A stretch of DNA of 10,778 nt from Candidatus Thorarchaeota archaeon (GTDB lineage Archaea > Asgardarchaeota > Thorarchaeia > Thorarchaeales > Thorarchaeaceae): assembly GCA_016839605.1 (NCBI GenBank), contig JAEOTX010000244.1, forward strand, positions 1-10,778, written 5' to 3'. The notes under the pieces are model-generated. The model had not been told where the DNA came from. It made no database searches and saw only the letters and a program-made list of their open reading frames with translations. Each line of letters starts with the position of its first letter. Positions within the stretch are counted from its first letter, which is position 1. The position numbers and the translations under genes are program-made. Shown piece by piece: positions 1-10,778 of the stretch.

Positions 1-1412
1 GGATCAGTCTTTTTCTTTATCTTCGCCATCTTTCCATAAATGTGCTTACCGAAGAAACTCCGACTATATGCAACGTTCCACATGCCAATAGAATATGCAC
101 GGCCACCATGTTTCACACCAAGGTTGATGACATCAAGTGACCGATACCATCCCATGAGGAATGAGATCCTCTTCCGTTCGTCATCAAGAAACCATGTCAG
201 AACAGCGACTTCTCCTTTATCCGAAACTGCTCCTTCAGCTGCGTATGATTCTCCCTTGAAGTGCTTGTCCATATGTTGTAGAAAACCACTCAAACGTTGA
301 AGAGGAACATATACCTCAGAAGGTGCAAGACTTGGTCCAAGTCGCTTTATTCTCATGGGATAGAATCTCTCAGCCCATTCATGGTTCGCAATCTCTTCAG
401 ACTCAATCGTGCCATTATGTTGATGCACGATTTGAAGAAGTTTCCCCGTTCCTTCAGTAATCTCGTCCTGCGTCCCTTCGAAAGCAGCAAGAATGAGCCA
501 TTCGCCTGCTGACTCAGGAGCCATATCAAGCTCAGCCAGCATTTTGTGAAATAGGTCGGTGATGAAATGAAGATAGAAAGGTCTAGTGGCTTTGAGAATG
601 TCCTCCATCGCTGTCTGCATAGCTTCTCGGTTACTGAATGACGCCACAACTGGATGGATGTTTTTGAGAGGTATCAGTTTCAGTACTACTCGGGTTATGA
701 CCCCGAGCGCCCCGTTACTATCCACCATGAGTTCCTTGATTTCTTTTCCAGATTGGATTTTTTGATCTTCGTAGCTCCATAGATATTCATCCTCACCAGG
801 GAAGAAGCTATACCCTCCATCCTCATCATCAAAGAAATCCGCCTGGGGATCATTTGTTCTTACAATGCGACCATCAGGAAGGACCGTTTCCATATCAACA
901 ACCTGTTCTCGAATTCCACCGTATTTCGTGCTGCCAATTCCTATACCACCAGCAGCAACCCAACCCCCCACGGTACTTGACAATGCACTTGATGGATATG
1001 CTCTTACGGTGACACCTTCTTCCTCAAGGTCTTCTAGGAGTTTTCCCCATATGATGCCAGCTCCAACTTCCACAGTCATTTTATCCTTGTCAATCTCATG
1101 TATCTTATTCATTCGAGTAGTTTCGATGACCAAACCCCCTCGTGTGGGAAGAGCGCCCCCATACCCAGACGTACCATGACCGCGAGGAACTACTGGTATT
1201 TTGTGTTCAATACAATACTTCAAGAGGTTGGATACAATCTCAGCATTCACTGGCTGAGCTACAGCCTCTGCTTTTGTGACTAGAATGTCATTGACCAATC
1301 CTGGCAATGCTGCAATGTCGTGGGAATAGAGATTGGTCATGAACTCCTCTGCAGAGAAGAAGTCTTCACCAGTGATGTCAGCTAGACCTTGGAGTTGCTT
1401 GTTACTCAACAT
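1..1412 (-). CDS. FAD-binding oxidoreductase, VAO/PCMH (GlcD/D-lactate dehydrogenase-like) fold, paralog C; 3' end runs off the window
   Basis: Not in the ORF track. My translation of the minus strand is stop-free from GTG1421/ATG1418/ATG1412 to base 1: MLSNKQLQGLADITGEDFFSAEEFMTNLYSHDIAALPG...VVPRGHGTSGYGGALP...AYPSSALSSTVGGWVAAGGIGIGSTKYG...DSNGALGVITRVVLKL...EWAERFYPMRIKRLGPSLAPSEV...WFLDDERKR...HGGRAYSIGMWN...KIKKKTDP. It is colinear with 4010..5716. ATG1412 is preferred because GGTGA lies 5 nt upstream. Confidence 0.93.
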   Translation of the reverse strand, partial: MLSNKQLQGLADITGEDFFSAEEFMTNLYSHDIAALPGLVNDILVTKAEAVAQPVNAEIVSNLLKYCIEHKIPVVPRGHGTSGYGGALPTRGGLVIETTRMNKIHEIDKDKMTVEVGAGIIWGKLLEDLEEEGVTVRAYPSSALSSTVGGWVAAGGIGIGSTKYGGIREQVVDMETVLPDGRIVRTNDPQADFFDDEDGGYSFFPGEDEYLWSYEDQKIQSGKEIKELMVDSNGALGVITRVVLKLIPLKNIHPVVASFSNREAMQTAMEDILKATRPFYLHFITDLFHKMLAELDMAPESAGEWLILAAFEGTQDEITEGTGKLLQIVHQHNGTIESEEIANHEWAERFYPMRIKRLGPSLAPSEVYVPLQRLSGFLQHMDKHFKGESYAAEGAVSDKGEVAVLTWFLDDERKRISFLMGWYRSLDVINLGVKHGGRAYSIGMWNVAYSRSFFGKHIYGKMAKIKKKTD

Positions 1413-1421
1413 ATCCATCAC

Positions 1422-2606
1422 CTACTCTATGCCTAGTGCCTCCACTACAATCTGAGAAAGGTCTTTGAAGATGATTTTGGACTCTCTATCCTCAATCCCA
1501 TCCCTAAATGACATAGTACAGGAAGGACATTCACTAGCTATTATCTCAGCACCAGCCTTCTCAGCTGCTTCGATTCTCCGACCTGACACACGGACTGACA
1601 TCAAGGGATTAGTCCCCTTAAGGAGGCCCCCGCCGCCACAACATCTGGCCTTACTGCGATTGTGCTTCATTTCTCGAAGATCAAGCCCAGGGATTGCATT
1701 CAGTATCTCTCTTGCAGGATCGTAGATGTGTTGATGCCTGCCCAACTCGCAGGGATCATGCCATGTGACAACATGAGAATACTCCCTATCGAACTTGATC
1801 TTTCCTTCCTTCATCTGTCGCAAGATGAATTCAGAAAACGGAAGGAACTCTAATCCCTCCACAGCCTCTTTGCCCAATAGGTGGGGGTATTCTTCATTGA
1901 AAGCACGGTGGCACCCAGGGCAGTTGAATACAACCGTCTTTACTCCCAGTTCCTTCAGAGTGGTAAGGTGGTGCTCAGCCATAGATCTTGCCTTCTCAAA
2001 CTCACCTGCTACAAAGTAGGGGTTGCCGCAGCAGTATTCCTTTTCTCCGAGAATCGTGAAATCAAGCCCGAGATGGTCGAAGATTTTGGCTGTGTTCTCT
2101 CCCATGTGTGCTAGTGTCCCCTTGAATGAGATATTGCAGCCTGCGAAGTATGCATATTCGGCTGGGACAAGCTCCTTATCCTCTATAAGATCATCAACCA
2201 TATCTGTCCAAAGCGTTCTATCGACCTGATCAATCTCCATGATGTTCTTGCTGCTCTCAATTGAACTGTCTAAGAACTTCACAATCTCTGGCCATTCTCC
2301 AAGATTGCCGATCTCATTCCTGATTAGCTGCCAGAATCTAAGCAACGGGATATTAGTCTGACATATCTCCTCACATGCGCCACAGAGGGTGCATTTGAAG
2401 ATACGATCCGCAAAGTCCTCTGGAATAGGCTCATTATCTTTGATCAATGACTTTAGTTGGTAGAGCTTACCTCTTGGGGATTGAGAATCCCAAAGTGTAT
2501 CCAAATATGCTGGACAGACGAATGTGCAGAATCCACAGCGAGCACACACAGTAGGTTCGATATCGAGCGCTTCTGCCTTAAGTTGTTCAAACAAATCGCT
2601 TCCCAT
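1422..2606 (-). CDS. (Fe-S)-binding oxidoreductase subunit, GlcF/HdrD-like: two ferredoxin-type [4Fe-4S] motifs plus two CCG domains, paralog C
   Basis: CARCGFCTFVCP and CTLCGACEEICQ; CCG1 FAGC...YCCG...NCPGC; CCG2 HDPCELGR...RCCGGGG...ECPSC; SD GGAGG at 2613-2617. Confidence 0.93.
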   Translation of the reverse strand: MGSDLFEQLKAEALDIEPTVCARCGFCTFVCPAYLDTLWDSQSPRGKLYQLKSLIKDNEPIPEDFADRIFKCTLCGACEEICQTNIPLLRFWQLIRNEIGNLGEWPEIVKFLDSSIESSKNIMEIDQVDRTLWTDMVDDLIEDKELVPAEYAYFAGCNISFKGTLAHMGENTAKIFDHLGLDFTILGEKEYCCGNPYFVAGEFEKARSMAEHHLTTLKELGVKTVVFNCPGCHRAFNEEYPHLLGKEAVEGLEFLPFSEFILRQMKEGKIKFDREYSHVVTWHDPCELGRHQHIYDPAREILNAIPGLDLREMKHNRSKARCCGGGGLLKGTNPLMSVRVSGRRIEAAEKAGAEIIASECPSCTMSFRDGIEDRESKIIFKDLSQIVVEALGIE

Positions 2607-2618
2607 ACGAAGCCTCCT

Positions 2619-3116
2619 TTATGGCCAAGGTAGTCCTATCCAATCTAGGACTGGCTCTAATATCGATTCACCGTAGACTGCTATGCCTCCTAACGCAGCA
2701 ATTATGATCATTAGGACGCCAGCTACGATAACCATTATTCCATAGATGAGATATGATGAGGTCTTCTCCCAGACTCTATCACTAAGCTTTGTTCGCAAAA
2801 CTATCACGAAGATGTATATCTCAGTGGCAATAATCGACCAGAGAATCTTGAACCGCATGTAGGCATTGTTCTCGAGTGCTACATATGGCCAGTCCATGAA
2901 TCCAGAGATCATTCCAGCAAAGAGTCCAAGCAAGACGATTATATTCCCCCAGTGGATGAATATGTCAAACTCATGGAATAGCTTGGCCATCCGTGTACCC
3001 GGAGTTCTGATTCCCTCCCTAAACACTAGTCGGAATACAATGTTAATGAGTGCTAAGACAGCAGTTGCTGCACCGATTCCAGTGTGAAAGTGTACGAAGA
3101 CTGGATGTAACGCCAT
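2619..3116 (-). CDS. DUF2231-like integral membrane protein (about 4 TM helices)
   Basis: N-terminal LHPVFVHF and C-terminal LGGIAVYG resemble the DUF2231 HPxxVHFP and GGxxVY patterns, with four hydrophobic stretches. Start moved from GTG3125 to ATG3116 because that GTG lies inside the GGTGA SD. Confidence 0.75.
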   Translation of the reverse strand: MALHPVFVHFHTGIGAATAVLALINIVFRLVFREGIRTPGTRMAKLFHEFDIFIHWGNIIVLLGLFAGMISGFMDWPYVALENNAYMRFKILWSIIATEIYIFVIVLRTKLSDRVWEKTSSYLIYGIMVIVAGVLMIIIAALGGIAVYGESILEPVLDWIGLPWP

Positions 3117-3125
3117 ATCAATCAC

Positions 3126-3782
3126 CTACTGTGGACCTGCCCTCCGTATGATCACAAGACCAACAAGTGACAATATGATGGCTGTGACGGGAGTAAATAC
3201 GTACATCTGAGTGTACCAAATCTCCTTTCTTTCTTCCTCACTCAAAGTTGTAGGGGTAGGTGTGGTGGTAGTGGGTGTGGTAGTAGTAGGGGTTGGACTG
3301 GTCGTGGTCGTACCTGTGCCGGTTCCAGCAACAACATTTACAGAAACATCAAGACTTGCAGCCTTAAGATCTGAAACAGGGCCTGAGGCTGCCCAAATTT
3401 GGATTGTGAACGAGCCTGCTGATTGTGGAGTAATGGTCACAGCAACCGTTATCTCACCGGTGTTATCATTTGTGTCCTCGCCATCTCCATCCTCAACGAG
3501 CTGAGTGGAGTACGTAAACTGGTTATTATTTGCAAGACCCGTGACAATTTTAATTGCCTCACTTCCTGCTGCTGCATCAATAACAAGGATGAATTGCTCA
3601 CCTACAATGGCATCAACTGTCCCTGTTGCATTTGAGCCCAATGTCAGAACACTAGTATTGGTGTGACACGTATCACACGCTGAGTTCTGATCCACGTCTG
3701 CTATCGCAAAACCAGCACCAATGAATAATATAGCGATGAAGGCTATAGCGCCAAGCAACATCGTTCTGTGATGTCTTCCCAT
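3126..3782 (-). CDS. Exported, C-terminally membrane-anchored protein with one CxxCH heme-c motif (putative monoheme cytochrome c with a beta-rich domain)
   Basis: Basic N-region plus hydrophobic core ending AIA|D (signal peptide); CDTCH at 3663-3677; beta-strand-like domain; Thr/Pro linker; TM helix MYVFTPVTAIILSLVGLVII followed by RR; SD AGGTGA upstream. Confidence 0.8.
   Translation of the reverse strand: MGRHHRTMLLGAIAFIAILFIGAGFAIADVDQNSACDTCHTNTSVLTLGSNATGTVDAIVGEQFILVIDAAAGSEAIKIVTGLANNNQFTYSTQLVEDGDGEDTNDNTGEITVAVTITPQSAGSFTIQIWAASGPVSDLKAASLDVSVNVVAGTGTGTTTTSPTPTTTTPTTTTPTPTTLSEEERKEIWYTQMYVFTPVTAIILSLVGLVIIRRAGPQ
3247..3326 (-). repeat. Low-complexity Thr/Pro-rich linker coding tract (GTGTGTTTTSPTPTTTTPTTTTPTPTT)
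   Basis: Imperfect gtg/gta triplet repeats on the plus strand, within CDS 3126..3782, just before the TM anchor. Confidence 0.85.
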
Positions 3783-3788
3783 ACAATC

Positions 3789-3795
3789 ATCACCT
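3789..3795 (-). promoter_or_regulatory. Shine-Dalgarno site (AGGTGAT) for CDS 3126..3782
   Basis: Minus strand reads TAAGGTGATGATTGTATG, matching the archaeal GGAGGTGA-type SD. Confidence 0.7.
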
Positions 3796-3877
3796 TAGAG
3801 TCAGGCACACTTGCTCGAATCATCCGTTCGTTCATTGTCCAAGACCTATACGGTTTCAGTCCGAAACTCAATACCGT

Positions 3878-3894
3878 TATTTTAAGCATATCGG
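3878..3894 (-). promoter_or_regulatory. Putative archaeal promoter (BRE + TATA box) for TU3
   Basis: Minus strand CCGATATG-CTTAAAATA in the 227-nt intergenic gap, about 95 nt upstream of ATG3782; resembles the element at 6938-6955. Confidence 0.5.
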
Positions 3895-3939
3895 AATGTT
3901 CAATCATTACGATTCAAGTATAGATAGTTACGTCTTGCA

Positions 3940-3971
3940 TCTATTGCATAATAGAAATTACAATATGTAAT
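3940..3971. promoter_or_regulatory. Two adjacent palindromes, candidate transcription-factor operators
   Basis: TCTATT-gcat-AATAGA (3940-3955) and ATTACA-ata-TGTAAT (3957-3971), upstream of the putative TU3 promoter. Confidence 0.4.
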
Positions 3972-4009
3972 CATTCTCACCGTTTAGCTTCGATTGCGTC
4001 GCTTAATGC

Positions 4010-5716
4010 TTACCTGTTGAGAAACTTGTCAAGGAATCGTAACAGGGGGATTCCCATTGCCAGTGCCTGATTCAGCGTCATCAGCTTCATGGCTAATAGA
4101 CCTACTGCTCCTCCGAGAATCGACAAGTACCAAATGAGCTGTACATGCAGGAATTGCAGTGGAAACGATGTCAAGAGGTCGCCAGCCCGAGTGAGCCCTA
4201 GAAAACTTGGTCCAAAGAAGAGTAATCCGAATGTCAAGATGAAGCCCACGCCAAAACCAAAGAGTTGCGAATGCCATGCCGTCTGAGCTCTGCCACCAAA
4301 GACCTTCACCGGATTGAGCATATTTCGTGGGTCAACATCCTTCTTCAATTGCTTCAGCTTAGCTATCTTGTCTTCTCCATAGAATACCTTTGCATGCCTT
4401 GTGTTCCAGAGCGCTACAGCATAGGGGTGACCTTCGTGCTTTCGAGCCAGTGACGCTATGTCGAAAGATCTGTGCCATCCTATCGTATACCTGAATTTCT
4501 TTCTCTCATCATCTAATATCCAAACCAGGTAGGATGCCACACCATCCGCTCCGATTGTTCCCTCAACGGCGAACTTGGAGTTACCAAGCCTGTCTAGTGT
4601 GTCTTGATGGAGATCTGGGAGGTTGTCCACTGGAGTCGTGACCTCAGCGGGAACAAGACTGGGTCCCTGTCTCTTGAATCTTAGCGGATAAAGGCGTTCA
4701 TCCCAGTGGAAGTCTGCCCGTTTCTCATCGAGGAGTGTCCCCTGATTTTCACTTACAATCTTCTCAATTGCTTCTATGCCGTCATCATTGTCATAGATAG
4801 TACCATGCAAAGCTCCAGCAAGCAAGAATTTGTCCCATTCCGCAGGGAAACCAATCAGCGATGCTAGTTTGGAAGTATGGTTATTGTCAAGATATCGAAG
4901 GTGATATGGCAAAGCACTGTCAATCATTATCTGAGCTACTTTAGCGAGGTCTGCTATGGATTCGAATGAACATGCGAATGGACGGAGTTGCAGTTTGGGA
5001 ATAGTCCGGAGTGTGACCTTGGTGATGATTCCAAGCGTTCCGTATGTTCCTGATAGAACTTCATTGAGTCTGATGCTGCCGCCCACTTTATCGGAAAGCC
5101 ATTCAGTCCCTTCAGTCGCCTCATCATGAAGATCATCAGGCTGAGGTCCTACCACTACGTCACCTACTCTGACAATTTTGCCGTTAGCCAATACAGCCTC
5201 GATACCGACTACTTGGTCACCAATCTCGCCATGTTTCGCGGATCCAATTCCAAAGCCACCACTGGCAACGAAACCGCCAACTGTTGCGGCAGTGGCACTC
5301 GAAGGATAGACGGGCAAGGTAGTACCCATCCGTTCCAGAATCATCAGTAATTCCCGCCATGTTATTCCAGCCTCAACTGTAACAGTGCAAGCATAGTCAT
5401 CGAGATGAACCATCTGATTCATCTGTGTCAGACTCACACAGAGACCTCTCTTTACAGGAATTGCTCCTCCCCAACCTGATGTTCCATTGCCACGCGGTAC
5501 AATGGGCAGGTCATGCTCCATGGCGTACCTCAAAAGATGTTGCAGTGATTTTACAGTGACTGGCTGGGCAACAACGTCGAACTGATTGTCAATAATCTGC
5601 TTCGCTATGCCTGGAAGGTTAGCTGCGTCTTCAGAGTATATCCTGCACGTTTCATCATCTGCTGTCACATTGTCAGCGCCCACAATATCCTCAAGCTCCT
5701 GTGGGATTATCTTCAT
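4010..5716 (-). CDS. FAD-binding oxidoreductase, VAO/GlcD-like fold, paralog B, with C-terminal hydrophobic (about 2 TM) extension
   Basis: PRGNGTSGWGG PP-loop, YPSSATAATVGGFVASGGFGIGS, GTYGTLGIIT, C-terminal LKKDVDPRNMLNP; then about 85 mostly hydrophobic residues. The start overlaps the upstream stop (ATGA, 5713-5716). Confidence 0.93.
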   Translation of the reverse strand: MKIIPQELEDIVGADNVTADDETCRIYSEDAANLPGIAKQIIDNQFDVVAQPVTVKSLQHLLRYAMEHDLPIVPRGNGTSGWGGAIPVKRGLCVSLTQMNQMVHLDDYACTVTVEAGITWRELLMILERMGTTLPVYPSSATAATVGGFVASGGFGIGSAKHGEIGDQVVGIEAVLANGKIVRVGDVVVGPQPDDLHDEATEGTEWLSDKVGGSIRLNEVLSGTYGTLGIITKVTLRTIPKLQLRPFACSFESIADLAKVAQIMIDSALPYHLRYLDNNHTSKLASLIGFPAEWDKFLLAGALHGTIYDNDDGIEAIEKIVSENQGTLLDEKRADFHWDERLYPLRFKRQGPSLVPAEVTTPVDNLPDLHQDTLDRLGNSKFAVEGTIGADGVASYLVWILDDERKKFRYTIGWHRSFDIASLARKHEGHPYAVALWNTRHAKVFYGEDKIAKLKQLKKDVDPRNMLNPVKVFGGRAQTAWHSQLFGFGVGFILTFGLLFFGPSFLGLTRAGDLLTSFPLQFLHVQLIWYLSILGGAVGLLAMKLMTLNQALAMGIPLLRFLDKFLNR

Positions 5717-6915
5717 TGTTGCACATCTCCCTCCCCCTCTTCTGAGCTCAGTGAGTTTGCAACTAGCTGTGCAATGTCTAGAATCTGTACGCTGTAACCC
5801 AAAGTTATTGTTGCGAGGTCGAATGCCATCTCACAACGAGGGCATTCTGTGACAAGTAGTGATGCTGGAGTGACTGATGCATCCCTCAGCCGCATCTCAG
5901 CTATTTGTGCAGACAGGTGTGGGTCTATCATATTGAGGAGTGCATGCGAACCACAACACCTAGTGTCCTCCTCTGTTGAGACCATTTCCACTCGGTAAAT
6001 GCCAGGAATTCTCTCAATTACATTGCGGGGCTCCTTCCCAACTCCTAGAACCCTTGCTGATATGCAAGGGTCATGATACGTGGCAGTAATCATAGGCTGT
6101 TCTTCGAAAGCAAGGAGTCCCTTCTGGATGAGCTGATTAATGAACTGCGAAGCGGTCAGGAGTTCCATCTTTCTTACAGCAGATGTTCCCGAGCTCTTGT
6201 GCATTGAACTGATCCATGTGCTCGCACAAGACGGACAACTGAACACAACCTTCCTCACACCGAGATCAGCCAATGCCTGAGCGTTCTTCTCTACCATTGT
6301 TGGAGTGCCCTCAGGCTCTCCCGCCCATAGCAGTGGTGCTCCACAGCATGATTCCTCTTCGCCAAGGAGAGTGTACTCTACGCCTGCATGCTCCATGATT
6401 TTAATCATAGACCGGGCTACATCGTGAAGCGGGTGTTTCAATGATACATTGCACCCCAAGAAGAACGCCACTTCTGCTTTCGCACTGATTCTTGTTTCGA
6501 TAATATCCTCCATGCCCTCTGCCCATAGAAGCCTGCTTGCGCGGCCTATAGAAAATGGATCACCTGTCCTCTTGATGGATTCACTTGCGAACTTCACTGG
6601 AGCTGGAGTTAGGTTTCTTGCTTTGGCTTCTTCACGCATTAGCTCCCAAAACCGGTCGAGTCTGATGCTAGTAGTGCATACTGTCGTGCAATGTTCGCAT
6701 AAGGTACACAGAAAGAGTTTCCTCGTGAATTCTAGATTGAATTCTGACTCCTTCTCCAAAATTGATTTGGTAATGCTGAGTTTACCACGAGGGCCATAGG
6801 GTTCCCATCTCATCTGGCGAAAGACAGGACATACTAATGTGCAGTTGCCGCATGAAGCGCAAACATATGGGTCATTCTTCTGACCGCTCTGTTCAATCGG
6901 CCCTGGCTTAGTCAT
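5713..6915 (-). CDS. (Fe-S)-binding oxidoreductase subunit, GlcF/HdrD-like (2x[4Fe-4S] + 2 CCG), paralog B
   Basis: CASCGNCTLVCP and CTLCEHCTTVCT; FLGC...SCCG...SCPSC; HDPC...RCCG...ECPRC. Confidence 0.93.
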   Translation of the reverse strand: MTKPGPIEQSGQKNDPYVCASCGNCTLVCPVFRQMRWEPYGPRGKLSITKSILEKESEFNLEFTRKLFLCTLCEHCTTVCTTSIRLDRFWELMREEAKARNLTPAPVKFASESIKRTGDPFSIGRASRLLWAEGMEDIIETRISAKAEVAFFLGCNVSLKHPLHDVARSMIKIMEHAGVEYTLLGEEESCCGAPLLWAGEPEGTPTMVEKNAQALADLGVRKVVFSCPSCASTWISSMHKSSGTSAVRKMELLTASQFINQLIQKGLLAFEEQPMITATYHDPCISARVLGVGKEPRNVIERIPGIYRVEMVSTEEDTRCCGSHALLNMIDPHLSAQIAEMRLRDASVTPASLLVTECPRCEMAFDLATITLGYSVQILDIAQLVANSLSSEEGEGDVQQ

Positions 6916-6937
6916 TCCAAAAGACTCTCAATGATTC

Positions 6938-6955
6938 TACCTTAAGACTGTTCGG
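6938..6955 (-). promoter_or_regulatory. Putative archaeal promoter (BRE + TATA box) for TU2, probably giving a leaderless mRNA
   Basis: Minus strand CCGAACAGT-CTTAAGGTA; the CTTAAG at 6941-6946 is about 25 nt from ATG6915, and no clear SD precedes that ATG. Confidence 0.55.
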
Positions 6956-6964
6956 CTAAGGCTC

Positions 6965-7005
6965 AAAAATGAAAGGGTTCTGGAGCACCAGTTGGTGCCC
7001 CAGAA
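6965..7005 (-). terminator. Hairpin plus U-rich tract, likely terminator of TU1
   Basis: Minus strand TTCTGGGGCACC-AACT-GGTGCTCCAGAA (12-bp stem with one G-U pair), then CCCTTTCATTTTT, starting 13 nt after the stop at 7019. Confidence 0.7.
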
Positions 7006-7018
7006 GCGCTACTAATTC

Positions 7019-8350
7019 CTAGGAAAGGTCTTCTATCATCTCACCAGCGCAGGCTATGCCCGACATTGAAGCTGCTTCCATACTTGCATAGTATATTCCA
7101 CAATTAGCAAAAGCACCTGCAACATAGAGCCCTTCAACTCCAGTCCTGTTTGTTTTCAGTCGGTTTTCCATAATGCCCGGTGGTTGTGACAAGACTGATC
7201 TCCAGATCTTCCAGCTCTTCTTCCAGGTCACCTTGGTTTCTACACCCGGAATTAGTTCCTTTAGCTCATCAAGTAGTATCTCAGTTGCTTCTTCATCATT
7301 TACCTTGAGGAGTTCCTTGTCAATACTTGTGACAGTCAGAAGTGACTCACCGATTGGTGCCAGAACTCCTGAAACTCTTTTTGCTTCCGCTACAATGTTG
7401 ATTTTTCTTCTAGGAACAAATGCACCTACATTGAAATCAAGTACCCGTGAGGAGAGACCAAAGTAAGCGACGGTCGATGGAGCGTAGGTGAATTTACCAA
7501 CAGCTTCGGTGAAGTCCTTTGGCAATTTATTCATATTGATTAGATTGGGCAGTAGGTCGATGGGAGTCGTTACGACAACAGCATCTGTATCAACATGTGT
7601 ATCCTTGCCATCTTGTTCATAATCTACCCCCTGAACCTTACCATCTTCAATGATAATCTGTTTGACAGTGCAGTTCACTTTTGGTTCAACAGCGAAATTT
7701 CGAGCTTGAAGCATGAGGGTATATGGCACACTTCCTAGACCGCCTCGTTCAGGATACATTGCCTTGAATCCATCTTCATAGGCAAACCTCTGCTTCTCTG
7801 AGAAGAGATACTGCCCAGCAGAGACCTCATCAGGTGTCATGAAGGTGACTGTTCTAATCAATGGATCATAGAAATCCTGCTGAATAGATTCGGGAATGCC
7901 TTTCTCTTCTGCATATTGGGCAAAGGTCATTTTATCAAGTTCTAGAAACTCCTCATCAGGACGATTCATACTTTCCTGAACGATTAATCCCAGACGTGCC
8001 CTGTCTGTCATTGGCAAGAGCCCGAACTTGGCTAGGTCCACTGCAGACTTACGAACGATGTGCCTGTCACCCCCCTTGAGCCAGACCGCTCCTTCTCCTA
8101 CGGTAGTCATTCTGATTCCGCTTCGTTCCAGAATTGGAATCAGCGACTTGAAACCACCGACAAAGAAGTGGAGTCCCTGATCGAATACATAACCCGACTC
8201 AGTGAACGACCTCGCTCGGCCGCCTACAGTCTTCTCCTTCTCAAGGATTGTGCACCGTGCTTTTAGACCCTTGAGCTCTAATGCACAGCTAAAACCAGCA
8301 ATCCCTGCACCAACTACTACAACTTTAGTCCCCTTTCTCGACTCACTCAT
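7019..8350 (-). CDS. FAD-dependent oxidoreductase, amine-oxidase superfamily; closest in motifs to phytoene/zeta-carotene desaturases (CrtP/CrtQ) and HpnE
   Basis: Rossmann VVVGAGIAG...LEK...VGGR; DQGLHFF (cf. PDS/ZDS ExGLHxFFG); C-terminal GLYVAG...YYASMEAASMSG (cf. PDS FYLAGDYT...YLASMEGAVLSG). The superfamily call is firm; the subfamily call rests on remembered motifs. Confidence 0.85.
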   Translation of the reverse strand: MSESRKGTKVVVVGAGIAGFSCALELKGLKARCTILEKEKTVGGRARSFTESGYVFDQGLHFFVGGFKSLIPILERSGIRMTTVGEGAVWLKGGDRHIVRKSAVDLAKFGLLPMTDRARLGLIVQESMNRPDEEFLELDKMTFAQYAEEKGIPESIQQDFYDPLIRTVTFMTPDEVSAGQYLFSEKQRFAYEDGFKAMYPERGGLGSVPYTLMLQARNFAVEPKVNCTVKQIIIEDGKVQGVDYEQDGKDTHVDTDAVVVTTPIDLLPNLINMNKLPKDFTEAVGKFTYAPSTVAYFGLSSRVLDFNVGAFVPRRKINIVAEAKRVSGVLAPIGESLLTVTSIDKELLKVNDEEATEILLDELKELIPGVETKVTWKKSWKIWRSVLSQPPGIMENRLKTNRTGVEGLYVAGAFANCGIYYASMEAASMSGIACAGEMIEDLS

Positions 8351-8357
8351 TTCGTTC

Positions 8358-9482
8358 TCACTCCTCTACTAGAGATGACTGTGCCAGATCTAAGACCAGC
8401 TCGTCCAACTGAATGACTTCTAGGTTGGTTTCACGAGCACAGTAGCTCAAGTTCTTGTAACAAGATACACACGGTGTAATCATTCCGTCAACTCCTAGCT
8501 CAACAGCTTCATTAACCCTTCTTTTCCCAACAGATTCTGAGAGATCAGGATCTAGGACTGTCAAGAAACCACCACAGCAATTGGAATTCTCCCTGTTGTT
8601 AGGCAGTTCCACAAACTCGAGATCAGGAATAGCTTTGATTATCTCTCTGGGAGGCTCATAGATGCCAAGTGCCCTCCCAAGATGGCAACTGTCATGGAAC
8701 GTATAGGTGCCCTCCTTTCCCTTGAACGTCAAGACACCATTCTGAATCATGTCTGCTAGTACCTCAGCAGTGTGATGGATTTTCACATCAAATCCAGGAA
8801 CTAAGTGCGCATAGTGCTCTGCAAGTGTTCCATAGCACCCCCCGCAGCCAGTGACAATATGCTGTATGCCTGCTTTCTTGAACATCTCATAGTTCTTGCG
8901 TGCTATCCTCTCAAAACCCGCATCATCGCCTGCCCAGTAGGACATGAGCCCGCAGCACACTTCGCTAGGCACGAATCCTGCATCGACTTTGAGTTTCTGG
9001 AGCATGTCGACAACCATCTCTGGCTGATCAGGAAACCAGAAGCTTCCCATGCAGCCGCTGAATATTGCAGTATTCGATTTCTCTGGAAGGTCTAGGTCTT
9101 CAGCCCATATGGTCCGGTCTTCAGATTCGTATCCAATGAATGGCGTGCCTTCCTTGTCAAGCCAGTCAATGACCTTCACAAGGTTATCAGACATCTCTCC
9201 TCCTGTATTGAGAAGATTCGCCTTGGCATCATGCCAAATTTGAGTCACAGGAACACCAGCTGGGCAAATAGCCTCACACCTTCTGCAGTCTGCGCAATAG
9301 AGCCTCTGCAGCAGTTCTTGAGGCGGTTTCCTCATCTTTTCTCCATATGCTCTCAGCGCTCTGATTTTGCCTCCTGGACTGTCGAGCTCAGAACCCAATT
9401 CCATATACATCGGACAGGTGTCGCGACAGTAGTTGCAGGAGCCACAATGGCGCATCACTTTCTTATCAATATCCACTCTCAT
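8358..9482 (-). CDS. (Fe-S)-binding oxidoreductase subunit, GlcF/HdrD-like (2x[4Fe-4S] + 2 CCG), paralog A
   Basis: CGSCNYCRDTCP and CADCRRCEAICP; FSGC...VCCG...GCGGC; HDSCHLGR...NCCGG...PCVSC; SD GAGGTG overlapping the upstream stop. Confidence 0.93.
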   Translation of the reverse strand: MRVDIDKKVMRHCGSCNYCRDTCPMYMELGSELDSPGGKIRALRAYGEKMRKPPQELLQRLYCADCRRCEAICPAGVPVTQIWHDAKANLLNTGGEMSDNLVKVIDWLDKEGTPFIGYESEDRTIWAEDLDLPEKSNTAIFSGCMGSFWFPDQPEMVVDMLQKLKVDAGFVPSEVCCGLMSYWAGDDAGFERIARKNYEMFKKAGIQHIVTGCGGCYGTLAEHYAHLVPGFDVKIHHTAEVLADMIQNGVLTFKGKEGTYTFHDSCHLGRALGIYEPPREIIKAIPDLEFVELPNNRENSNCCGGFLTVLDPDLSESVGKRRVNEAVELGVDGMITPCVSCYKNLSYCARETNLEVIQLDELVLDLAQSSLVEE

Positions 9483-9494
9483 TGTTCTGCCACC

Positions 9495-10778
9495 TCATCT
9501 CCCCACATATCTTGAAAGCCGTCTAATCCCTGCGGCCATTGAAAACAACACATTCATCCTTGCATATGAAGTCATACAAGAGGTCACTCGATCTGGATTC
9601 ATGATGTTGTTCCGATCCCATTTTTCCTTGGCTGTCTTCATCATTTCCAGTTTCTCCGGATAAGCACGCTTCATATAGATTGAATTCTGGAGTCCGATCG
9701 AATAAGGCCCTCCTCCAAGAGAAATGGACTTCTTCACCATTTTATGGAGTATGCCCTTACTGGCAATGAACTTCAGATACTGGTCTGGATTCAGCATCAT
9801 CATTAACTCGATTCTCACCCAGCCTTGTGTACCCAGCATAGCGAACCAAATCGCAGGCACTTTATGGGATTTCTTATACAACTCATATTGCTTCAGCAGG
9901 TCGTAGACTTTGTCCACTTCAATCGAAACCTCCTGAAACATCAGAGTTTCACAGTGCTCCTTGGGACTGAACTCGCAGTCATAACGGAGAGCCCATTCTT
10001 GAGCTGCATACTCGACACTGAGGTCCATTCCACCGTTGTCTGCAATCACTTGCTTGAGTTCATCTATCGGGACCTTATCGGGATTATTTGGATAGGCAAC
10101 TGTTAAGACAAACTTCCCTTTTTCAAGTGGATTGCTATAGCTCTGGAAATCCTTGTCAGCAATCTTCAGATGGATGGGCCTCTGTTCAATGTCAGCAATC
10201 TGCCGCATCGTATTGCATAAATGCTCCAAATAATCGAAACTATAGCTGAAGGGTATGAAGTCATCTGGCTTCTGATGGATTTTCATCTTCACTTCAGTGA
10301 TGACTCCAAGTATGCCATAAGATCCGATGAATGGACCGATATCATCTCCACTGACCTTCACTAATTCTCCATCTGCATTGGCAATTGTCAATTCGAGTAG
10401 GTTCTCAATTAGGGCTCCATAGAAGGGGGTTCCGATACCCACTGCTCCACCGCATGCAATCCACCCACCAATGACGGCTGATTTCGCACTTGTCGGATAT
10501 ATCCCGATGGTCCGTCCTTCTTTTGCCAGTTCGATATCCAACCTTTCAAATGGAACTCCTGGTTCTAGCCTCACGTATCCTTCCTGTGCATTTATTTCAA
10601 GGATGGCGTCCATGCGTTTCATATCTAGAGATATACCGCCTCTGGTAGGGCTGGATGAGCCCAGACAGCTGGATGCGCCACCTCTTGGAATTACTGGGAG
10701 ATTATGTGAGGCTGCTGTTGTGAGAACTTCCTTGACCTCATCAACATTCTCGACTCTCACTACGTAGTCAGCAAGGTA
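9495..10778 (-). CDS. FAD-binding oxidoreductase, VAO/GlcD-like fold, paralog A; 5' end lies beyond the window
   Basis: The frame stays open past the track's GTG10760 to the edge (YLADYVVRVENVDEV...). Motifs: PRGGASSCLG, YPTSAKSAVIGGWIACGG, GSYGILGVIT, KEKWDRNNIMNP. Confidence 0.92.
   Translation of the reverse strand, partial: YLADYVVRVENVDEVKEVLTTAASHNLPVIPRGGASSCLGSSSPTRGGISLDMKRMDAILEINAQEGYVRLEPGVPFERLDIELAKEGRTIGIYPTSAKSAVIGGWIACGGAVGIGTPFYGALIENLLELTIANADGELVKVSGDDIGPFIGSYGILGVITEVKMKIHQKPDDFIPFSYSFDYLEHLCNTMRQIADIEQRPIHLKIADKDFQSYSNPLEKGKFVLTVAYPNNPDKVPIDELKQVIADNGGMDLSVEYAAQEWALRYDCEFSPKEHCETLMFQEVSIEVDKVYDLLKQYELYKKSHKVPAIWFAMLGTQGWVRIELMMMLNPDQYLKFIASKGILHKMVKKSISLGGGPYSIGLQNSIYMKRAYPEKLEMMKTAKEKWDRNNIMNPDRVTSCMTSYARMNVLFSMAAGIRRLSRYVGR

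Follow-up and report, generated by a model that had tools for sequence, protein, structure and literature searches.

A tyrosine-variant clade of GlcD-like flavoproteins lacking the canonical metal site, represented by three HdrD-partnered paralogues on a Thorarchaeota contig

The active site of the D-2-hydroxyacid dehydrogenase LDHD has been described in detail: H398, H405 and E442 ligate Mn2+, R347 and H443 contact the substrate, H443 acts as the base, and the Ala mutants of H398, H405, E442, R347 and H443 were each inactive (PMC10589216). AGPS, which handles lipids, belongs to the same branch and contains no metal; it works without an Fe-S partner, and the exchange that it catalyses involves no net redox change. 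In vanillyl-alcohol oxidase (VAO), Tyr503 and Arg504 bind or deprotonate a substrate oxygen (PMC5646868). In archaeal metagenomics, a GlcD gene next to HdrD is routinely read as lactate-driven heterodisulfide reduction (PMC6421429). Here, a stretch of 10,778 bp (the window), which is the whole of contig C209 of a Thorarchaeota metagenome-assembled genome (MAG; 3.08 Mb, estimated 80% complete), was analysed. Its nine genes, all on the minus strand, include three VAO-fold flavoproteins, FAD1, FAD2 and FAD3, with Tyr at the position of the catalytic His. The three proteins are probably membrane-linked, metal-independent flavin/Fe-S substrate dehydrogenases.

The three motif peptides reported in the preliminary description of the window were recovered exactly by translation (Table 1). 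The pairwise identity of FAD1-3 is 27-38%, and G429, Y432 and N438 (FAD2 numbering) are invariant among all three. The closest known enzymes are the FAD-dependent D-2-hydroxyacid dehydrogenases, namely mouse LDHD (8JDB-8JDY), LctD (7QH2), the D-lactate dehydrogenase 9QGZ/9QIT, which is deposited as 'glycolate oxidase', human D2HGDH (6LPN) and GlcD. In phmmer and profile alignments to the PDB chains, the Tyr occupied the column of the GEHGIG His in mouse LDHD, LctD and 9QGZ, and that of the final His of HHHGVG in AGPS. The segment GG-x-P-Y-x-x-G aligned with GGTCtgEHGIG of mouse LDHD and GGslsHHHGVG of AGPS; relative to the D-2-hydroxyacid dehydrogenases, 3 residues are deleted from the catalytic loop, among them the metal-ligand Glu. 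The HxGDGNxH region aligned with EGTIGADGVAS, EGAVSDKGEVA and FAMLGTQGWVR, none of which contains a His. The His-His-Glu metal site is thus really lost, with non-ligand residues at both His positions and the Glu deleted. Because the positions of H398, H405, E442 and H443 are all changed or deleted, the metal-assisted LDHD mechanism is impossible in FAD1-3.

The substrate carboxylate-binding Arg (R347 of LDHD) is retained, as seen from WDER, WAER and WALR compared with WAAR, and is 90% conserved in the clade described below. The replacement of GSEG with DSNG, GTYG and GSYG in FAD1-3, as well as the presence of YPSS or YPTS, where LDHD has PxDPG, could be read directly in the sequences. The preliminary description had listed the motif with its Tyr and Asn, the altered GSEG and YP[ST]S as shared by the three proteins. 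Across the clade this held for some of them: the Tyr, G435 (97%) and YP[ST]S are clade-wide, whereas the Asn and the altered GSEG are features of particular lineages only. The motif Asn is conserved to 41% in the clade (F 32%, L 20%) and the W to 53%, and 56% of the clusters retain the Glu of GSEG.

A supply of metal-binding His or Glu from elsewhere in the protein was also considered and rejected. No His column reached at least 80% conservation in the 98 Tyr-type clusters. Residues 427-431 of FAD2 (window 4424-4438) read His-Glu-Gly-His-Pro just before the Tyr, which could mimic a metal site; this stretch is unconserved, H427, E428 and H430 being missing in most orthologues, and 71 of 120 FAD2 orthologues have FGGLPY there.

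The AlphaFold2 model of FAD2 residues 1-479, built from a 52-sequence alignment, had a mean pLDDT of 93.3 (92 near the motif). In the Foldseek search with this model, mouse LDHD was found first (TM-score 0.80/0.85, 22% identity), followed by 9QIT/9QGZ, LctD, 3PM9, AGPS and D2HGDH. The predicted fold of FAD2 is that of the D-2-hydroxyacid-dehydrogenase/AGPS branch. In common with the D-2-hydroxyacid dehydrogenases, FAD2 has the three-domain fold, aligns over the full length and keeps the Arg of R347 and the terminal DPxxxxNPGK. In contrast to these enzymes, which end at NPGK, a KRxGPS segment and a hydrophobic tail or transmembrane anchor are added. AGPS (2UUU/4BBY) was the second-best match among the known systems by structure and by profile (E 2e-55), with its R419 aligned to the conserved Arg. 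Membership in AGPS was rejected, since the HHH loop is absent (GGrp---Y compared with GGslsHHH) and the Tyr578 segment of AGPS, SHTYTNG, aligns with GADGVAS, SDKGEVA and GTQGWVR, which have no Tyr.

The Tyr-variant proteins form a distinct, large and widespread sister clade of the D-2-hydroxyacid-dehydrogenase/AGPS branch and are not products of decay. The motif PYA[VI][GA]LWN was kept by 116 and YP[ST]S by 118 of the 120 FAD2 orthologues, which share 48-100% identity and come mostly from Thorarchaeota, with some from Hod- and Sif-archaeal MAGs. A profile of the three paralogues was searched against 1.84 billion representatives and the best 150 matches were inspected; GG[RK]PY[SG]xG[LI][WY][NF] was present in nearly every readable C-terminus of these, and GEHGIG in only one. 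In an alignment of 131 full-length domains of the clusters nearest the profile, the Tyr column contained Y in 98 and H in 6, two of the His rows being the canonical and AGPS-like proteins of the same genome; one subclade has L, V, A or G. The conservation in the 98 Tyr-type clusters was 100% for P138, 99% for S140, 98% for W338, 97% for G435, 90% for R341 and K348, and 89% for E358, and the terminal D..NP.K was at least 89% conserved. FAD1, FAD2 and FAD3 all match the clade signature (YP[ST]S, W..R, KR.GPS, GG.PY..G and a tail past NPGK), with the tail of FAD1 read from its orthologue and contig C191; the one exception is PKEHCETL of FAD3 in place of the KR.GPS found in FAD1 and FAD2.

In the FastTree phylogeny, the clade was separated from the genome's canonical AEHGFG protein (contig C18) and from its AGPS-like SHQHGVG protein (contig C179). 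FAD3 was placed in one subclade, and FAD1 and FAD2 in another, which is rich in HdrD-fused proteins of 850-1070 amino acids. Members occur in Asgard archaea, Bacillota, Chloroflexota, syntrophs and Aminicenantes, and many are fused with an HdrD/GlcF-like CCG Fe-S protein or encoded beside one. Desulfitobacterium, Aminicenantes, Anaerolineae, Methanomassiliicoccales, Syntrophomonas, Sporomusa and Desulfosporosinus are among the sources of the named members, which all bear either generic names or names of the 'glycolate oxidase' type. In 38 of 164 relatives the C-terminus was extended by more than 250 residues, and wherever scanned the extension contained an HdrD-like domain. In 39 of 40 stand-alone members the tail after NPGK was at least 19 residues long (median about 40) and often amphipathic or hydrophobic. 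In the FAD1/FAD2 lineages the tail reaches about 99 residues with clear transmembrane helices; in the representatives P0107 and P0121 it has 99 residues, and its Kyte-Doolittle maximum over a 19-residue stretch is 2.7. Strong purifying selection on the motif, the separate position in the tree and the spread over many phyla bore out the earlier proposal of a conserved subfamily. A profile search of PDB chains gave no entry with the Tyr variant, and in the literature search neither a described Tyr-variant GlcD family nor a link between GlcD, HdrD and lipoate was found. The fold and the flavoprotein/CCG architecture are already known; as far as the libraries and literature were searched, the metal-free Tyr-variant clade with its signature and tail is undescribed.

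As a separate observation, tandem double-flavoprotein fusions of about 880-935 amino acids (P0124, P0125, P0135, P0137, P0139, P0155) occur for example in Methanomassiliicoccales. A truncated VAO-fold domain is followed there by a full one in an architecture resembling a GlcE-GlcD fusion, and the motif Tyr is missing (GGRTTGFG, GGRPSGMG).

The loss of the canonical catalytic residues would also be expected if the proteins were decayed, non-catalytic scaffold subunits of the GlcE type. This is hardly conceivable: the replacement residues are strongly conserved in more than 100 clusters and in the FAD2 orthologues, the FAD-binding motifs are intact, the cluster has no canonical GlcD partner, and the GlcE model (NF008439) gave only 31, 58 and 49 bits with FAD1-3 compared with the cut-off of 284. 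The explanation was therefore rejected on the conservation and on the GlcE scores.

The scores with the other equivalog models were similarly low. FAD1-3 reached 127-149 bits with TIGR00387 (glcD) compared with the cut-off of 567.9, 71-74 bits with PRK11230 (cut-off 897) and 47-65 bits with YdiJ (cut-off 1350), the latter two in the NF008408 and NF049975 tests; nine further clade members likewise remained below every NCBIfam equivalog cut-off. In contrast, all three proteins exceeded the cut-off of FAD_binding_4 (PF01565, 26.4 bits), and FAD2, FAD3 and the full-length FAD1 orthologue (43.7 bits) exceeded that of FAD-oxidase_C (PF02913, 21.2 bits). Since no equivalog cut-off was reached, specific lactate or glycolate labels are unjustified. 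The suspicion that automatic labels were wrong applied less well to the window itself, where the NCBI name is already the generic 'FAD-binding oxidoreductase'; some sources do label relatives 'glycolate oxidase' or 'D-lactate dehydrogenase (cytochrome) family'.

An ordinary D-lactate, glycolate or other D-2-hydroxyacid dehydrogenase, working metal-free with Tyr in place of His, would agree with LDHD, LctD and 9QGZ/9QIT as the best sequence and fold matches, with the retained carboxylate-binding Arg and with a CCG partner as in GlcDEF. Such an enzyme is nevertheless improbable here. Each of H398A, H405A, E442A and H443A inactivated LDHD and exactly these four positions are altered, the glcD scores are far below the cut-off, and the same genome retains on contig C18 a canonical H...H/AEHGFG paralogue with a CCG partner of its own.

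Each of the three flavoprotein genes is adjacent to or overlaps the gene of its own HdrD/GlcF-like partner (Hdr1-3), and each partner contains a ferredoxin-type dicluster domain and two CCG domains with complete Cys motifs. No transmembrane segment was found in the Hdr partners, whereas FAD1 and FAD2 carry transmembrane tails. The pairing resembles GlcDEF and YdiJ, as well as the Dld-II type, in which a VAO-fold flavoprotein is paired or fused with a GlcF/HdrD-type CCG protein. The genome contains 14 VAO-fold genes, nearly all of which, canonical ones included, adjoin HdrD-like genes. Both ends of C209 fall inside flavoprotein genes. The C-terminus of FAD1 continues as the transmembrane tail on contig C191:3-440, as determined by tblastn with residues 433-578 of the G011 orthologue, and the N-terminus of FAD3 lies in the overlap at the end of contig C184 (C184:29085-29468). 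C184, C209 and C191 form one locus. The features of the window are collected in Table 1.

Table 1. Features of the window (contig C209); G011 and G012 are genomes used for comparison
Feature	Position	Strand	Evidence
FAD1, VAO-fold flavoprotein of the Tyr-variant clade	3-1421	minus	PF01565 132 bits; C-terminus cut by contig end
FAD1 motif HGGRAYSIGMWN, Tyr at the catalytic-His position	75-110	minus	exact translation and alignments
Hdr1, HdrD/GlcF-like, 2x[4Fe-4S] and 2 CCG domains, partner of FAD1	1422-2606	minus	PF02754 124 bits, Fer4_8
Polytopic membrane protein, 168 amino acids, between modules 1 and 2	2619-3125	minus	sequence; same order in G011, G012
CxxCH monohaem protein on Thr/Pro stalk, 218 amino acids, between modules 1 and 2	3126-3782	minus	sequence; same order in G011, G012
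FAD2, complete flavoprotein of the Tyr-variant clade, 568 amino acids	4010-5716	minus	PF01565 120 bits, PF02913 41 bits
FAD2 C-terminal extension, about 96 amino acids, hydrophobic transmembrane helices, beyond GlcD/LDHD end point	4013-4300	minus	sequence
FAD2 motif HEGHPYAVALWN, Y432 aligned to LDHD His443	4403-4438	minus	exact translation and alignments
FAD2 W338-D-E-R341, Arg equal to LDHD R347/AGPS R419, then clade-specific basic RFKRQGPS	4694-4705	minus	alignments
FAD2 YPSS (Y137-S140), clade-wide signature; xPxDPG in LDHD	5297-5308	minus	P138 100%, S140 99%
Hdr2, HdrD/GlcF-like CCG Fe-S protein, partner of FAD2, 4-nt overlap with FAD2	5713-6915	minus	PF02754 97 bits
HpnE/phytoene-desaturase-like flavoprotein of amine-oxidase fold, between modules 2 and 3	7019-8350	minus	PF01593 121 bits; same position in G011, G012
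Hdr3, HdrD/GlcF-like CCG Fe-S protein, partner of FAD3	8358-9482	minus	PF02754 110 bits
FAD3, flavoprotein of a different subclade of the Tyr-variant clade, amphipathic C-terminal tail	9495-10778	minus	PF01565 117 bits, PF02913 32 bits; tree
FAD3 motif GGGPYSIGLQN	9684-9716	minus	exact translation and alignments

The gene order FAD3, Hdr3, HpnE-like, Hdr2, FAD2, haem protein, membrane protein, Hdr1, FAD1 was kept in congeneric genomes. Directly downstream of FAD1 (C191:459-3906; L023:198-5867; also in G011), genes of a MenA-like prenyltransferase, an IdsA-like polyprenyl synthase, a GGR-family reductase and CcmABC were found; the MenA-like protein scored 108 bits with TIGR00751, above the cut-off of 102. 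In G012, a PNPOx::MenA fusion of 512 amino acids is encoded inside the cluster between Hdr3 and the HpnE-like gene (L024:16876-18414(-)), and a fourth FAD/Hdr module and a protein with an EB_dh haem-b domain (L024:128-1231) are nearby. A quinone/cytochrome c respiratory island beyond FAD1 is possible in the Thorarchaeon. Searches of the MAG (80% complete) gave no MqnA/D and no true MenB.

The same neighbourhood could be taken to mean that the flavoproteins are biosynthetic or tailoring enzymes of a prenylated quinone or lipid, acting with the MenA-like, PNPOx-like and HpnE-like proteins of the cluster. The linkage with MenA-like, IdsA-like and GGR genes is kept in three genomes, the PNPOx::MenA fusion lies within the cluster, the flavoproteins have transmembrane anchors, AGPS and DprE1 are superfamily precedents with lipid-linked substrates, and the missing MqnA/D and MenB would also fit. 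Such a role is considered very unlikely, since three to four paralogous modules with their own Fe-S partners look catabolic or respiratory, the clade is widespread without MenA neighbours, and in a MAG of this completeness the missing Men/Mqn genes prove little.

The relatives of the FAD proteins occur in two other types of surroundings. In the bacterial 'GGRPYGVGLWNTPY' subclade ('GGRPYGVGLWN' type) of Syntrophomonas, Sporomusa, Desulfosporosinus, Anaerolineae and Syntrophaceae, a strongly conserved operon was detected (loci L026-L105, e.g. L065:125-15393 and L055). Its order is E1 alpha, E1 beta, AcoX-like, E2, LplA, GcvH, flavoprotein, HdrD-like, DUF6506, LplA, GcvH, GGR-like and radical SAM, where E1/E2 are of the 2-oxoacid/acetoin type and the AcoX-like protein is AcoX/NAD-kinase-like. 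Lipoyl-type neighbours (GcvH-like proteins, lipoate ligases, E1/E2 and radical-SAM/GGR-like lipoate assembly) were present in up to 72 of the 80 bacterial loci, and no conventional E3 was found among the conserved neighbours. The active-site signature is shared by this sister subclade, with W310, R313, E330 and Y406 invariant. In contrast, the flavoprotein::HdrD fusions of the Aminicenantes type (1030 amino acids; 80 loci, L112-L191) are solitary genes. An ArsR-type regulator was near the fusion in 31 of the 80 loci, usually just upstream, and a FadL/TodX porin for hydrophobic compounds in about a dozen; beyond these two, no conserved operon was found around the 80 fusions.

The bacterial subclade resembles the sHdr-LbpA and other lipoate-linked Hdr-like systems (Cao et al. 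2018, PMC6067878; Tanabe et al. 2023, PMC10332631) in its CCG Fe-S proteins and in its position among GcvH-like carriers and lipoate-assembly genes. The archaeal cluster differs from sHdr in having no lipoyl-carrier or ligase gene, and sHdr itself has no VAO-fold flavoprotein. The lipoyl context of the bacterial subclade raises the alternative of a dithiol:quinone oxidoreductase, in which the CCG site would handle a small or protein-bound dithiol/disulfide, e.g. of a lipoyl carrier, and the Tyr-lined flavin pocket would serve as the port of a lipophilic carrier such as quinone. Besides the lipoyl genes around bacterial proteins with the same active-site signature, the placement of the transmembrane anchors on the flavoproteins and not on the CCG proteins and the MenA-like gene linked to the cluster speak for it. 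In the same Thorarchaeon, an HdrD-like gene with a divergent VAO-fold gene (C66:26448-30551) has a GcvH-like gene (C66:30219-30551) at a distance of about 1.3 kb, which is the only archaeal hint of the bacterial lipoyl link. Still, no GcvH or lipoate-ligase gene is in or beside this cluster or the orthologous clusters, the conserved Arg and the basic segment resemble the site of an anionic substrate, no lipoyl genes lie near the fused members of the Aminicenantes type, and in GlcDEF and YdiJ, the known paradigms, the substrate reacts at the flavin. A dithiol:quinone oxidoreductase is thus conceivable but rather doubtful.

For FAD1-3 as metal-independent substrate dehydrogenases, the following mechanism is proposed. 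In this reading there are three paralogous redox enzymes of two subunits, with FAD1-3 as the flavoprotein subunits and an HdrD/GlcF-type CCG protein as the partner of each. The Tyr hydroxyl and the Arg would polarise the oxygen of an anionic, probably hydrophobic substrate, similarly to Tyr503 and Arg504 of VAO, and the hydride would move to flavin N5 without a metal. Electrons would pass between FAD and the Fe-S/CCG partner and, in the Thorarchaeon, may end up in a quinone/cytochrome system of the membrane. Together with the added basic LRxKRxGPS segment, the conserved Arg and the invariant Tyr point to a working metal-free active site for an anionic group. The transmembrane anchors, the non-ligand residues of the former metal site, the quinone-prenylation/cytochrome c context and the FadL/TodX neighbours of the fused relatives suggest a lipophilic substrate or carrier, handled by the enzymes at the membrane. 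Of the earlier proposal of a distinct subfamily with different chemistry, the subfamily has been confirmed; the different chemistry is putative, and as the carboxylate Arg of LDHD is kept, an anionic hydroxy-type substrate is still compatible.

The comparison with VAO has its own limits. FAD1-3 share with the VAO/PCMH 4-phenol oxidising enzymes an active-site Tyr near the C-terminal DPN motif, putatively acting with an Arg. A VAO/PCMH-like paralogue of the genome (contig C72) has a Tyr-Arg pair 30 residues before DPN, a spacing equal to that of Y432. The suggested equivalence of Y432 with Tyr503 is drawn only from this equal spacing and the VAO sequence, the alignment of the paralogue being ambiguous. 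In contrast to VAO/PCMH, the FAD domain alone aligns, the Tyr is followed by Ser or Ala instead of forming a Tyr-Arg dyad, and the cap domain is nearer to that of LDHD. No His or Tyr for a covalent flavin was identified in the flavoproteins of the window.

Several points weigh against the proposed dehydrogenase function. None of the clade's members has been characterised, and nothing points directly to a substrate. The deletion in the loop makes the equivalence of Tyr and His, as judged from the alignments, positional and not geometric. Since a subclade with V, L, A or G in the Tyr column exists, the Tyr is not required for the fold or in every function. The bacterial operons with lipoylation, GcvH and E1-E2 genes are more in line with disulfide chemistry at the CCG site than with oxidation of a substrate at the flavin, and the conserved Arg and Tyr could still support slow 2-hydroxyacid oxidation. 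In addition, the adjacency of MenA and Ccm is confined to one genus, and no known pathway of a naphthoquinone head group was found in the MAG at its estimated completeness.

A large share of the GlcD-like flavoproteins encoded next to HdrD cannot run the known lactate/glycolate mechanism, and the metabolic inferences made from them need another look. The clade spans many phyla of anaerobes and has neither a structure nor a curated family; a crisp signature now separates it from the true D-2-hydroxyacid dehydrogenases. The ties of the modules to quinone-prenylation and cytochrome c maturation genes bear on respiration in this Asgard lineage. A bolder extension, to which only a low likelihood is given, is that the clade constitutes a widespread, undescribed membrane-associated class of flavo/Fe-S enzymes, with a Tyr/Arg flavin pocket for a quinone-like carrier or substrate and a CCG site for a dithiol/disulfide, which in bacteria would be a lipoyl protein. 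The three to four modules of Thorarchaeota, together with the MenA-like protein, Ccm and a cytochrome c facing outwards, would on this view make up a new anaerobic respiratory chain. If true, such a chain would belong to an archaeon closely related to the host lineage of eukaryotes.

Upstream of the window, on contig C184, genes of two PNPOx-like proteins are accompanied by that of a fusion between a VAO-fold protein and a NuoB-like domain. The fusion protein (651 amino acids; C184:22605-24572(-), equal to L025:8603-10558(-)) belongs to the same clade and has a C-terminal Oxidored_q6 domain (83 bits). Its motif reads GGHAHSTGIWF, with His in place of the Tyr, and an HdrD-like gene is located divergently beside it; the same GGH.HSTGIWF motif was found in P0131 (646 amino acids). 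In G012, a cupredoxin/Fer4_5 membrane protein is encoded at L024:5053-6978.

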